A stretch of DNA of 64,000 bases from Candidatus Micrarchaeia archaeon (GCA_038890815.1 JAWAFC010000001.1:68456-132455), one strand, 5' to 3'. Positions 5,150-13,877 are shown, counted from the stretch's first letter. Numbers and translations are program-made. Notes: generated by a model from the letters alone, not told the origin.

Positions 5150-5170
5150 ATAATCTATTTAAAGCGTGGA
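5150..5170. promoter_or_regulatory. Shared palindromic TATA-like box (TTTAAA, 5158-5163) in the 57-bp divergent spacer between leuS (-) and the paralog operon (+). Both transcripts would be near-leaderless.
   Basis: The box lies about 27 nt from each start codon (5134 on the minus strand, 5192 on the plus strand). It sits in an A/T-rich context, atctatttaaagcg, within GC-rich DNA. Confidence 0.35.
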
Positions 5171-5191
5171 GAAGCAAAAACCTCGGTAGAG

Positions 5192-6877
5192 ATGTCCCTC
5201 CCTTCCCCCACTGCGCCCCTCGAACAGTTCCTGCCCACCCTGAGAACAGCAATACAAACGAGCTGGGGAGGCGAGACATTCTGGTTTTCGATAGCTCTTA
5301 CCGCAATCCTCATCTCGTTCTTTTTCGTGGCAATCGCCTACATGCTGTCCGAGCTGTTGCGTTCGCCAGAGCTGCAGGCGTGGGCGAAGAACGAGCTTGT
5401 CGAGACGGCGGTGAGCGCGCTCATGGTGGGGCTTCTCTTCTCCTCGCTCACCGTGCTCAATGCGGTTGTAGCGGACATGACTGGCGGATATAGCCACATA
5501 GGCCTCGGCTATGCCTACCTCAACGAGACGCTGAACGACCTGACGCGCGTCTATATCGCCCTGCTGACGCTTGATGCCGGCATAGGCACGCTCGGCACGA
5601 TGGGCACAGTGCTCTACCCGCAGCTTTTCGGAATCCCCATCGGCACCCTGCTGCCCAGCCTCGGCATCAGCCCGCTGGTTGGGCTGACTATAGTGAATGG
5701 AGCTATTGTGAAGATCGCCGACGCCACCGCGCTCGCCATCGTGAATATACTGGCCCAGCAAGCACTGCTGGAGTTTATCTACGAGCAGTTCTTCACGTTT
5801 TTCCTGCCATTCGGCCTGATACTCAGGACATTCAGTCTGACGCGAAGGCTTGGCTCGACCATCATCGCGCTCGCCATATCGGGATACCTCGTGTATCCGC
5901 TCGCGCTCGTGCTCAATAAGGGCATCTATGAGTATGACAGAGATGTGATGGCGCAGTACAGCGCGGCTGGCGACATCCCGCCCGAGTGGAAGATTTCCGA
6001 GAGTGATCTCGCGCAGATAGGGAAGATCGCCTTTTTCTCGCCCCTCAGCACTGTGGGCGGGACCGGAGACTTCAACCTCACCTTTCTTCTCCAGGCACCC
6101 AATGGCACTTACGATGTGTGGTACAGAGAGTGGGAGGACAGCACGCCAACCGATTTCGTATGGCTCGGCGGAGGGACTTATACCGCAGGCGTGCCCGTTA
6201 ACTTCCCCGTGAGCAATCCGGGCGAAGGCCTCTTCGAGTACAGGGTTGTGGTGACAACGATAAATGCCACGCCCTGCAGCGAAGGATGCCCCACAGTTGT
6301 TAGGCCCGATGGCACGACTTATGGTGGGTGCGACCCGCGGGGTTATTGCCAGGACATGGCCGAGGCCAGCCTAAATGTCACAGTGAAGCCCGCATGCAAA
6401 TGGTATCAGGTGATGTGCTGGTTGAGGCGAGAGTACGAGCGGGCAGGGGAGGTGTGGAAATCGGTGGGTGGGCAGCTGCTTTTTGCCGGCATCACGGGCA
6501 TTGGAGTGATGGTCGGCTCGCCGCTGGTTAGAATACTTGGGGCGGTGGGCTCTGGCTATTTCCAAAGCCTCTGGCCCACCTATTATGTGTATGCTGCATA
6601 CGATTACATCACGTGCGATGCCAACACAGCACAACAGCCATGCTCATCGTGCAGAGGCAGCGTGCCGGCCTGGTGCCCCAACGCTGGCCTCACCGACAAT
6701 CCGACCATTGCCTCGCTGACACCGCCCGAGTGGGCACTGCCAATTGTGGTGAGAAAGCTGCTTGTGGTGACTGTGCTGACCGTCGTAGACATCATAATCG
6801 TCATAACATTCTTTCGCTCGCTGTCAAGCTCGCTCGGTGGAGAGACGCAGCTAGCTGGTATGAGCAAGTTGGTGTGA
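5192..6877 (+). CDS. Paralog 1 of a novel polytopic membrane protein family (561 aa). It has a large C-terminal extracellular domain that is Cys-containing and rich in N-glycosylation sequons.
   Basis: The ATG at 5192 is the first in-frame ATG beyond leuS; the ORF tool's 4355 start overlaps leuS. Shared family motifs are present: QAWAKNELVE after TM1, FFLPFGLILRTFSLTRRLGSTIIALAISGYLVYPLALV, and the C-terminal tail SLGGETQLAGMSKLV. The extracellular domain carries NxS/T sequons (NETLND, NLTF, NGTY, NATP, NVTV). Confidence 0.75.
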   Translation: MSLPSPTAPLEQFLPTLRTAIQTSWGGETFWFSIALTAILISFFFVAIAYMLSELLRSPELQAWAKNELVETAVSALMVGLLFSSLTVLNAVVADMTGGYSHIGLGYAYLNETLNDLTRVYIALLTLDAGIGTLGTMGTVLYPQLFGIPIGTLLPSLGISPLVGLTIVNGAIVKIADATALAIVNILAQQALLEFIYEQFFTFFLPFGLILRTFSLTRRLGSTIIALAISGYLVYPLALVLNKGIYEYDRDVMAQYSAAGDIPPEWKISESDLAQIGKIAFFSPLSTVGGTGDFNLTFLLQAPNGTYDVWYREWEDSTPTDFVWLGGGTYTAGVPVNFPVSNPGEGLFEYRVVVTTINATPCSEGCPTVVRPDGTTYGGCDPRGYCQDMAEASLNVTVKPACKWYQVMCWLRREYERAGEVWKSVGGQLLFAGITGIGVMVGSPLVRILGAVGSGYFQSLWPTYYVYAAYDYITCDANTAQQPCSSCRGSVPAWCPNAGLTDNPTIASLTPPEWALPIVVRKLLVVTVLTVVDIIIVITFFRSLSSSLGGETQLAGMSKLV

Positions 6878-11522: not shown

Positions 11523-12547
11523 TGTTGCAGGCGGATTTCGGGCAGGCAACGCAGGCTGCTGTCACGGCGGCTTGGACTACGGGGGCTGGGCTGGTGTGGC
11601 AGCAGGCTGCTGCGCTGGCCGTGCTGATATCCATATTTCTTGTGGCGCTCGCCTATATGGTCTCTGTAATTCTGGATCTGCCCGAGGCTAAAAGGTGGGC
11701 TCGGGGGGAATTCTTGCAGGCGATGGCCAGCGCCATGCTCGTGTTCGGCCTCATCGCCTTCACCGGCCTCATCTCCACTGGCATGGCAAACATCACGCGT
11801 GAGCTGGCTGCCAATAACCCGGTGCTGTCTGCCATTCCCCCAGGAGTCATCCAACCCGACAATCCATTCAGCTTAACGCACTTTTATCTGAACAGCACGC
11901 TGAAATGCATCAGGCTTTACTATGTCAAGGCGCTCCGCATTGCGTTGCTCGTGGATACGATGGCGAGTGTGACGCTGTCGAGCTATGGCGTGCATACCGT
12001 CACGGGCTGGCCCTTCTCGTATCCTTCCAACATGGCCCATCAGATAACCCAACTTTCGACATGGTTGCTCATCGCTAACTATTTCCAGAGACAACTTCTC
12101 AACTTTGTCGCGGACACCATGTTTACGATATTCCTGCCCCTCGGCGTTGTGCTGCGCGTGCTGCCCTACACGAGGGGCGCGGGCGCCTTCCTCATGGGGC
12201 TTGCCATAGGCATGTACCTGGTGTATCCCTTCAGCTATGCGCTCATACTTTCGGTGGGAGCCCAGCATGACCTGCTGAGCTGCGTGGAGTACAATGTGGA
12301 GGCGCTGAGGGAGCAGTGCGCGACACAGGAGGGCATCGCACAGCTGAGTTTTATATGGAAGGTAAAGAACACTGGGATAATAGCCTACCTAACCACTGTG
12401 GGCAGGCTCATCCCCTTCATGTTCATGGAAGCATACATATATCCGCTCATGGCGCTGACCATAACGTTCACGGCTGTGAAGCAGCTTTCCGATTTCCTGG
12501 GCGCGAACGTTGCCGAAATTGCACAGGGGCTGGTTAGATTAATATAA
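11519..12547 (+). CDS. Paralog 6 of the novel membrane protein family (342 aa). It has no lipobox; the N-terminal region leads into TM1.
   Basis: Shared motifs are a degenerate EAKRWARGEFLQ, FTIFLPLGVVLRVLPYTRGAGAFLMGLAIGMYLVYPFSYAL and the tail FLGANVAEIAQGLVRLI. The ATGA start overlaps the upstream stop. Confidence 0.75.
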   Translation: MMLQADFGQATQAAVTAAWTTGAGLVWQQAAALAVLISIFLVALAYMVSVILDLPEAKRWARGEFLQAMASAMLVFGLIAFTGLISTGMANITRELAANNPVLSAIPPGVIQPDNPFSLTHFYLNSTLKCIRLYYVKALRIALLVDTMASVTLSSYGVHTVTGWPFSYPSNMAHQITQLSTWLLIANYFQRQLLNFVADTMFTIFLPLGVVLRVLPYTRGAGAFLMGLAIGMYLVYPFSYALILSVGAQHDLLSCVEYNVEALREQCATQEGIAQLSFIWKVKNTGIIAYLTTVGRLIPFMFMEAYIYPLMALTITFTAVKQLSDFLGANVAEIAQGLVRLI

Positions 12548-12563
12548 AAAGAGATGTGATGGT

Positions 12564-13877
12564 GTGAGACCAGAAGTTGAGACAGACAAAAGTGAAGAGG
12601 AAAAAAATGAGGAAAGGCTGCTCGAAAAGCTCGTGGGCAGGCTCTCCTTCGTGCAAACGAGGGAGGAACAGGAAAGGATAGTGGGCGAGGCGATCAGGGA
12701 GGTTTACGGAAAGCTCAGCGAGGAGAAGAGGAACGCGCTCATCAGAAATGTGCTGAGTTTCGGGGAGCTCGACGACCTGATGAGAGATGAGGAGATTGAG
12801 GACATAATGATAAACGGCCTCAAGTCCATCTATACATTTTCCACAAAAGAAGGCATGGTTAAGGTCGACAGGAAATTCAAAACGCTCGAGCAGCTCAACC
12901 TATTCGTTAAGCGCCTGCTCGTGCTGTCGGGAAAAAGCAAACTGAATTACATAAACAATTTTCATCTGCCCGGTGGGAGCAGGGCGAATGTCATAGCTTC
13001 GCCTTTTGGACCTCAGATCACGATCAGGAAATTCAAAAAGAGGCCGCTTTCGCTCATTGACCTTATCGAAAACAACACCCTGAGTGTCGAGCTGGCCGCA
13101 CAGTTCTGGCTCTACGCGGATGGGCTGCGCATCAAGCCCGCCAACATACTCATCGCGGGCATGCCCGGTTCGGGCAAGACGACGATGCTCAATGCCCTGT
13201 TTTCATTCTTTCCGGCCAACGAGAGAATCGTAGTCATTGAGGACACGCTTGAGCTGAACACAGAGGCGAACGAAAACACCGCACGGCTCGAAACAACCGA
13301 GGAGCTGACAATGCAAGACCTCGTCAAGAACAGCCTGCGCATGCATCCGAACAGAATAATCGTGGGGGAGGTGCGCGGCAACGAGGCGAACGACCTGATG
13401 ACAGCCATGAACATAGGGAAGATCTGTATGGGCACGCTGCACGCCAACAGCGCGCGCGAGGCTGTCATGCGCCTTGAAAATGTTCCCATGAACGTGCCCA
13501 CTGAGATCATTCCGCTCATCGATGTTTTCATCGTCATGCGGCACTATTGGGTGAATGGGCGACTTAGAAGGGTGGTTGGGCAGGTGACCGAGACGGGAGG
13601 GATCGAGAAGAAGGTCCTCCTCAGCGACCTGTGCTCCTTCGACCCACACACGGGCACCATGGTGAACGTGCATCCCAGCGTAATTTACAGGGACCGCCTG
13701 GCGGCGGCCGCGGGCATCTCGCCCAAGGAGGTCATGGATGAACTTGCAGTGCGCGTAAAGGTGCTGCGCGCGCTTGTTAAGGCTGGCATCCGTGAGATAA
13801 AGCAGCTCAGCGAATTCACGCAGGCCTACTACGAGAACCCGCGGAACGCGATGGCGAAGATAGGTCTCCAGCAGTAA
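12564..13877 (+). CDS. Secretion or pilus-assembly ATPase of the FlaI/TadA(CpaF)/VirB11 family (437 aa). GTG start, 16 nt after paralog 6.
   Basis: It has Walker A (IAGMPGSGKTTMLNAL), an Asp-box/Walker B region (RIIVGEVRGNEANDLM), a His box (GTLHANSA) and a FlaI/TadA-like N-terminal domain (IMINGLKSIYTFSTKEGMVKVDRKF). No TadC/FlaJ platform or pilin genes are adjacent. Confidence 0.85.
   Translation: MRPEVETDKSEEEKNEERLLEKLVGRLSFVQTREEQERIVGEAIREVYGKLSEEKRNALIRNVLSFGELDDLMRDEEIEDIMINGLKSIYTFSTKEGMVKVDRKFKTLEQLNLFVKRLLVLSGKSKLNYINNFHLPGGSRANVIASPFGPQITIRKFKKRPLSLIDLIENNTLSVELAAQFWLYADGLRIKPANILIAGMPGSGKTTMLNALFSFFPANERIVVIEDTLELNTEANENTARLETTEELTMQDLVKNSLRMHPNRIIVGEVRGNEANDLMTAMNIGKICMGTLHANSAREAVMRLENVPMNVPTEIIPLIDVFIVMRHYWVNGRLRRVVGQVTETGGIEKKVLLSDLCSFDPHTGTMVNVHPSVIYRDRLAAAAGISPKEVMDELAVRVKVLRALVKAGIREIKQLSEFTQAYYENPRNAMAKIGLQQ

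Follow-up and report, generated by a model that had tools for sequence, protein, structure and literature searches.

The archaeal DNA-import systems Ced and Ted combine a VirB2-like pilin (CedA1/TedC), a VirB6-like protein (CedA/TedA) and a VirB4-like ATPase (CedB/TedB) (Beltran et al. 2023, PMC9905601). Tandem VirB6 paralogs are known from the type IV secretion systems (T4SS) of Rickettsiales, in the rvh system of Rickettsia and as virB6-1 to virB6-4 in Anaplasma and Ehrlichia (PMC2653234, PMC7648143), and subclade 4D of the Thermoproteales has pilin-less loci of an ATPase with proteins of 4-5 transmembrane (TM) segments, suggested to be diverged TadC (Makarova et al. 2016, PMC4858521). Here we compare with these systems an array at positions 5150-13877 of a 64-kb stretch of DNA (hereafter the window, the whole stretch analysed) from a metagenome-assembled genome (MAG) of Candidatus Micrarchaeia, a member of the DPANN archaea. 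The array comprises seven genes on the plus strand, six of them paralogs (P1 to P6) and the last a secretion ATPase. We propose, with about even confidence, that the paralogs make up a membrane conduit of six subunits in a type IV secretion- or Ced-like cell-surface machine, paired in the lineage of the window with an ATPase of the FlaI/CpaF superfamily.

The array starts 57 nucleotides (nt) from leuS (2348-5134, minus strand), which lies divergently upstream of P1. The genes and the TATA-like box that precedes them are as follows, with protein lengths in amino acids (aa).

5156-5163, plus strand: TATA-like box TATTTAAA, from direct reading of the sequence, about 30 nt 5' of the P1 ATG and 22 nt from the leuS start
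5192-6877, plus strand: P1, 561 aa, with a large Cys-containing insert, predicted to be extracellular, between TM4 and TM5; signature TR(R/K)LGST; C-tail IGGExxLAGxxKL(V/I)
6880-7818, plus strand: P2, 312 aa, the shortest paralog; signature FTRDAG(A/S)F; without the conserved C-tail
7823-8899, plus strand: P3, 358 aa; lipobox-like signal LLLLSGC; signature FFFTRKLGGL; C-tail LGGDVEIAGLTRLI
8896-10098, plus strand: P4, 400 aa; lipobox-like signal LILLSGC; signature FPFTRSAGGA; C-tail LGADxNLxALSKI(V/I)
10095 or 10098-11522, plus strand: P5, 475 aa (GTG start) or 474 aa (ATG start); lipobox-like signal FALAGC; signature RCFxxTRxFGG; C-tail LGEEVDVSNLTRMI
11519-12547, plus strand: P6, 342 aa; signature PYTRGAGG; a C-tail two residues longer, LGAxVAEIxQGLxRLI
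12564-13877, plus strand: hexameric-type secretion ATPase, 437 aa, of the FlaI/CpaF(TadA)/GspE/VirB11 superfamily (PF00437), 16 nt 3' of P6

This layout agrees with a first-pass annotation of the window, which had reported six same-strand paralog genes of 312-561 aa and, 16 nt further on, the ATPase. The operon-like packing that it proposed is borne out by junctions that measure, in order, 2, 4, -4 (ATGA), -4 (GTGA), -4 (ATGA) and 16 nt, the P4-P5 junction shrinking to -1 nt when the ATG at 10098 is taken as the start of P5; its 2-nt and 16-nt gaps stand, whereas a junction put at about 5 nt is 4 nt and one of three supposed ATGA overlaps is GTGA. Such tight or overlapping genes fit equimolar co-expression. 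The array is probably transcribed from the TATA-like box, which would leave the mRNA almost or entirely leaderless. The same genes, with P5 starting at ATG 10098, are called in the public annotation of an identical Logan contig, P1 is 100% identical to QXG98_00435 (NCBI), a hypothetical protein of a Candidatus Micrarchaeia MAG, and the GC content is even across the region.

The six genes are, as claimed at first pass, true paralogs of an unrecognised family. They share 25-28% pairwise identity and three motifs, WAKNE(L/F)YQ, LPxGIxLRxFxFTRxxGG and a C-terminal LGGxxxxxxLxRLI, and a hidden Markov model (HMM) of the family matches all six at E 1e-68 to 1e-91 and no other protein in the window. 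Searches of the six against Pfam, NCBIfam, PADLOC (for defence systems) and PDB sequences yielded no match beyond noise and a sub-threshold lipoprotein signal (LPAM_1 in P3, 18.3 bits, below the cutoff); PDB sequence searches with two family profiles were likewise empty, none of 78 family members scanned against Pfam carries a relevant domain, and full-text literature searches found no description of the family. A profile search of 1.84 billion cluster representatives, clustered at 50% identity, retrieved 3094 proteins at E<=1e-3, of which 2588 reach E<=1e-10 and 576 reach E<=1e-30. All members with a named source are a 'hypothetical protein' of Candidatus Micrarchaeota or of an 'uncultured archaeon', and the genome loci recovered belong to Micrarchaeota in 13 of 13 cases. 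A word-indexed homology search with the six-paralog alignment gave 4 proteins, its candidate list being swamped by low-complexity TM words.

The most striking feature of the locus, one that the first-pass annotation does not mention, is that the number and order of these genes are invariant across the phylum. Exactly six family members are present in every locus uncut by a contig end (15 genome-derived loci and many more from metagenomes), and when loci are compared by BLAST, a gene has its best match at its own position in 170-204 of some 210 comparisons for each of the six positions. The signature, in a loop predicted to be cytoplasmic, and the C-tail are specific to each position and are retained across all locus types; position 2 is without the conserved C-tail in all loci, and position 3 is the best conserved. 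The six-fold duplication predates the divergence of the Micrarchaeota lineages compared, all six genes having been kept in order. Taken together, the invariant number and order and the position-specific motifs imply six non-interchangeable subunits of one membrane complex, for which a hetero-hexamer would be the simplest reading. A single MAG may hold two arrays, as with loci L006 and L009 in JACRGF01.

The surroundings of the arrays in relatives point to the kind of machine in which such a complex might operate. Our survey covered the genome loci and 80 metagenome loci, with the DNA downstream of position 6 visible in 38 arrays. In 17 of the 38, position 6 is followed by two paralogous membrane proteins of ~270 aa and then by a DUF87/AAA_10/TraG-P-loop ATPase of ~510 aa, whose best NCBIfam matches are CedD (5.7e-18), CedB (4.7e-16) and the VirB4-like CD1110 (1.6e-13) (PDB relatives: HerA, a VirB4 homolog). 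Many of these VirB4-type arrays are preceded by one to three genes of ~100-140 aa, 8 of 10 of which match PF18895 T4SS_pilin (best 1.5e-7) and 4 of 10 PF04956 TrbC/VirB2; a VirB2-like pilin and a VirB4/CedB-like ATPase are both present in L001, L014-L017, L033, L037, L039, L064 and others. In the VirB4-type relatives the paralogs stand at the VirB6/CedA slot of a minimal type IV secretion-like locus, since the flanking pilin and ATPase provide the composition of such a machine. The comparison with tandem VirB6 arrays made at first pass was thus a good lead as to the position of the array between pilin and ATPase genes, while homology to VirB6 itself is undetectable by sequence.

A second context is that of the window, in which a FlaI-type ATPase follows position 6, as it does in 4 of the 38 arrays (the window, L003, L005 and L006). 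The array lies directly downstream of leuS in nine loci (the window, L003, L005, L007, L010, L013, L026, L042 and L077), and the window-type array is chromosomal and vertically inherited. We considered an origin of the array in a mobile element and rejected it, given the leuS synteny in nine loci, the uniform GC content and the lack of an integrase nearby.

Genes with a class III (type IV pilin-like) signal, of the form (R/K)(A/G)QxAxEY(L/V)xTYGWA, occur near other Micrarchaeota arrays (L001 19040-19924, L006 4344-4940, L013 13945-16047); one of these, a LamG-domain protein in a VirB4-type locus, directly follows position 6. An hhalign comparison of the paralogs with the VirB2-like pilins placed TM1 and its loop in register at 2.2% probability, and was not counted as evidence.

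The paralogs had been described as polytopic membrane proteins, and family-averaged hydropathy reveals five hydrophobic segments, at about 58-76, 99-114, 208-240, 255-270 and 359-381 in P4 numbering. The loop between TM3 and TM4 (241-254) carries a strong positive charge (K+R 2.6 against D+E 0.1 per sequence), P3, P4 and P5 carry lipobox-type signals, and variable Cys-rich inserts, among them the TM4-TM5 loop of P5 with 14 Cys, exceed 1000 aa in some relatives. Hydropathy, the placing of the lipoboxes and Cys-rich inserts, both of which would lie outside, and the positive-inside rule together lead us to predict five TM helices, an outer N-terminus and an inner C-terminus. On the cytoplasmic side the predicted loops have ~14-22 residues only, the large domains being outside. 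An AlphaFold2 model of P4 from a 78-sequence alignment (predicted local distance difference test, pLDDT, 82.9; predicted TM-score, pTM, 0.78) has very long helices of 41-52 residues and a small beta-hairpin. All three conserved motifs are predicted to face the cytoplasm, with long helical hairpins and variable domains outside, and the invariant residues G238, R242, R248, G251 and P266 lie in or beside the predicted cytoplasmic TM3-TM4 loop. Given that the most conserved residues would face the cytoplasm, a cytoplasmic partner is suggested. This predicted topology has what is expected of a VirB6-like protein, that is, at least five TM helices, an outer N-terminus, an inner C-terminus and a large extracytoplasmic loop; the VirB6 of Agrobacterium reportedly has five TM helices, the same orientation of its termini and a large central extracytoplasmic region.

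One subgroup of arrays has very long members of 1100-1400 aa, one with 108 Cys (L004 18183-23846, L047 17853-20660, L095 15075-18962). Downstream of these arrays are giant Cys-rich lipoproteins, possible adhesins, one of 1295 aa and one cut at 936 aa by the end of the locus.

We propose that the six paralogs would be six distinct subunits of one Micrarchaeota-specific integral-membrane complex, in its simplest form a ring or channel containing each of them once, for which we infer a stoichiometry of 1:1:1:1:1:1. The complex would replace VirB6/CedA as the membrane conduit of a type IV secretion-like machine of the conjugation or Ced/Ted kind, and a cytoplasmic hexameric ATPase would dock on it. 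In many Micrarchaeota its genes stand together with those for VirB2-like pilins and for a VirB4/CedB-like ATPase; in the window's lineage the chromosomal, leuS-linked array would be co-transcribed instead with an ATPase of the FlaI/CpaF/VirB11 superfamily, which would probably energise assembly or the passage of a substrate across the envelope of the host-dependent cell, be it DNA, protein or a filament subunit.

Such a machine would resemble Ced and Ted in that the array of the relatives sits between VirB2-like pilins and a CedD/CedB-like ATPase, in that the paralogs fill the slot of the polytopic pore protein, and in being chromosomal and domesticated, not plasmid-borne. It differs in having six distinct pore-slot proteins in place of a single CedA/TedA gene (PMC9905601), in paralogs without detectable sequence similarity to CedA or VirB6, in the two extra ~270-aa membrane proteins of the relatives, and in that the locus of the window has a FlaI/CpaF-like ATPase and neither a pilin nor a VirB4-like ATPase. 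With the VirB6 arrays of Rickettsiales it shares several tandem polytopic paralogs in the channel slot, with large variable extracytoplasmic extensions, in the reduced genomes of host-dependent organisms and near T4SS ATPase genes. The Rickettsiales proteins, however, are recognisable members of TrbL/VirB6 (PF04610), which the Micrarchaeota paralogs are not, and the latter are invariably six, in fixed order and with position-specific motifs, in archaea with a single membrane. TrwI/VirB6 of R388 (PDB 7O3V) has 12% sequence identity to the paralogs and forms a homo-pentamer, whereas six different subunits are implied in Micrarchaeota.

Several results weigh against this proposal, and they concern both the identity of the paralogs and the constancy of the ATPase. 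The first-pass annotation had called for a check against TrbL/VirB6 (PF04610) and T2SSF (PF00482), and neither family is matched, in the case of TrbL/VirB6 by the six paralogs at E<=1 or by the 78 members at E<=0.01. NCBIfam returned two insignificant matches to the paralogs and no Ced-family or other relevant one. Aligned with hhalign, the family profile and a TrwI profile gave 0.2% probability, the latter profile being shallow (members at least 51% identical) and leaving room for a remote relation. A Foldseek search with the P4 model retrieved nothing below E 0.1 from the PDB, and a search of viral structures gave the same outcome; the structural modelling only hints at homology to VirB6. 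In the window, Pfam searches of unassigned open reading frames (ORFs), a regular-expression scan and custom HMMs detected no T2SSF, VirB4/DUF87, VirB2-like pilin or class III signal peptide, in accord with the first-pass statement that a TadC/FlaJ platform, a class III pilin and VirB4 are lacking. The VirB4 and VirB2 homologs expected beside a VirB6, and the CedB/TedB and VirB2-like pilin expected beside a CedA/TedA, are accordingly absent from the window and present in relatives, and the trio that defines Ced and Ted is not found together in the window. We therefore file the family as one that may work like VirB6/CedA, by analogy of context and topology, and not as a demonstrated member of either.

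The ATPase adds a second set of difficulties. It matches PF00437 at 124.4 bits (cutoff 24.9) and carries a Walker A motif GMPGSGKTT, a Walker B region IIVGEVRG and a His box GTLHANSA, so that the Walker A and His box named at first pass are both readable in the translation. Its scores lie below the curated NCBIfam cutoffs for FlaI (NF058587, 226.8 against 550), for the TadA type (162.6 against 373) and for VirB11 (TIGR02788, 128.7 against 249.95), and its best PDB matches are Archaeoglobus GspE (2OAP, 1e-56), CpaF (1e-47) and FlaI (3.5e-40); on these scores we class it as a member of the superfamily that falls in none of the named subfamilies. Orthologs of at least 64% identity follow the array in L003, L005, L006 and L104, so that the arrangement recurs as the first-pass check of conserved context had required, and array and ATPase remain neighbours even where paralog identity falls to 36% and ATPase identity to 64-65% (L006, L104). 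In L104 (JAIYJG010000023) a gene for an IS605 OrfB/TnpB (Cas12f-like) protein, at 6097-7338, is inserted between P6 and the ATPase.

Nevertheless, the T2SSE ATPase adjoins the array in one clade only, and in 17 of the 38 arrays whose downstream DNA is visible, position 6 is followed by no ATPase of either type. Orthologs 53-62% identical are solitary in L105, L019, L106, L021 and L020, with no array, T2SSF or pilin within 10 kb, and two of these come from MAGs that hold an array on another contig (L021, array L007; L106, array L013). Homologs of ~50% identity in Candidatus Omnitrophota bacteria (L022, L023) are solitary too, with no TadB/C or pilin genes near them. The members of this ATPase clade are T2SSE proteins of 430-450 aa, and their distribution suggests that an 'orphan' secretion-type ATPase may have passed between the domains. 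Because orthologs are solitary elsewhere and adjacency is confined to one clade, the adjacency looks like a single juxtaposition event. The ATPase is not, then, a constant partner of the array, and the first-pass view of the paralogs as the likely membrane partners of the ATPase holds only in part: the adjacency is compatible with a functional link, and it is clade-restricted and no proof of one. The spacing is tight enough for co-transcription, and to a functional pairing of this ATPase with the array we give slightly less than an even chance. FlaH/KaiC-like genes are absent from the window; elsewhere they neighbour the array (L008, L011) or the solitary ATPase (L019, L105), an association too weak to use.

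The strongest alternative, which we still judge unlikely, takes the six-subunit complex to be a housekeeping envelope structure that is independent of any ATPase, such as a pore, an anchor for the S-layer or cell wall, or a docking site for host-derived structures, with the ATPase a chance syntenic neighbour in one clade. The leuS-linked arrays do lie among housekeeping genes, those for LeuS, iron-sulfur assembly and FtsZ included, the arrays of L008, L011, L013, L026 and L077 have no downstream ATPase, and the solitary orthologs in Micrarchaeota and Omnitrophota and the TnpB gene that parts array from ATPase in L104 all fit a chance association. Chance does not readily account, however, for a 16-nt spacing on the same strand that persists as paralog identity drops from 94% to 36%, the second frequent context also supplies a hexameric translocation ATPase, of the VirB4/CedB type, and the most conserved residues are all predicted to face the cytoplasm.

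We also considered that the paralogs are extremely diverged platform proteins of the FlaJ/TadC/PilC kind, which would work with the FlaI-like ATPase to build a type IV pilus, the genes for its pilins lying at other sites in the genome. Like the cores of archaeal type IV pili and archaella and the loci of subclade 4D, the locus sets a FlaI-family ATPase beside polytopic proteins of no known family and has no pilin, and for the ATPase-plus-4-5-TM loci a diverged TadC has been suggested (PMC4858521). The ATPase is closest to archaeal GspE/FlaI and CpaF, and class III-signal pilin genes are found near arrays, in L001 immediately behind position 6 and in L006 and L013 within 1-6 kb. This account, which we consider improbable, fails because none of the 78 family members (0/78) matches T2SSF PF00482, because the predicted topology is the reverse of that of T2SSF proteins, with short cytoplasmic loops and with large Cys-rich domains that are extracellular and not cytoplasmic, and because the commonest partners are VirB2-like pilins and VirB4-like ATPases and not type IV pilus genes. 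Moreover, the window has no class III pilin and, over its 64 kb, no prepilin peptidase, and there are six paralogs where FlaI/FlaJ and subclade 4D have one partner, in a partnership with the ATPase that is clade-restricted here.

A solute transporter or ion channel unrelated to macromolecule secretion, with the six proteins as its subunits or isoforms, is very improbable, given that neither Pfam nor NCBIfam returns a match to a transporter family, that variable Cys-rich ectodomains reaching more than 1000 aa are atypical of transporters, and that the arrays are repeatedly linked to pilin and VirB4-like genes.

Several other features of the window were recorded. A direct repeat of 164 nt (2082-2245 and 2256-2419, 99% identical, 174-nt spacing) overlaps the 3' end of leuS and creates a 54-aa ORF (2174-2338, minus strand) whose N-terminus is that of ORF 1637-2164 and whose C-terminus is that of LeuS; the repeat must have arisen by misassembly or by a recent duplication. 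There are three genes of the FtsZ/tubulin family, at 14304-15380 (plus strand), 15440-16504 (plus strand) and 42481-43938 (minus strand), the first two in tandem just downstream of the cluster and the third probably over-extended at its 5' end; L026 likewise has a tandem FtsZ pair a few kb downstream of its array. ORF 28643-29935 reads as a type III RuBisCO-like gene, from its N-terminal sequence alone, and ORF 44553-46202, a Glycos_transf_3-family gene with a PYNP_C domain, may encode AMP phosphorylase; together they suggest the archaeal AMP salvage pathway. The sole Rfam match in the window is a tRNA at 23492-23548 (minus strand), with 29.3 bits against a gathering threshold of 29.

Micrarchaeota and other DPANN archaea rely on physical contact with host cells, and to our knowledge the molecular machines that mediate exchange between DPANN archaea and their hosts are almost unknown. 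The six-gene set, phylum-wide, unannotated in curated libraries and tied by its context to conjugation-type pilins and translocation ATPases, is a concrete and testable candidate for the membrane core of such an exchange machine, and the family merits a Pfam or arCOG entry regardless of its eventual function. If the six-subunit conduit is real, it would be a rare case of a secretion-system channel made of six different paralogous subunits, and its two genomic contexts suggest that two classes of hexameric ATPase can each partner the same channel. More tentatively, and as a rather doubtful extension of this proposal, the conduit may be hetero-hexameric and represent a new design of secretion or uptake machine unique to Micrarchaeota, its six channel subunits matching the six-fold symmetry of interchangeable hexameric motors, VirB4/CedB-like or FlaI/CpaF-like, and serving these host-dependent nano-archaea as a port for the exchange of DNA, protein or metabolites with hosts. 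Docking structures have been observed by cryo-tomography in the envelope of DPANN-host pairs (PMC11329633), and a hetero-hexameric conduit, if it exists, would be a candidate for them.

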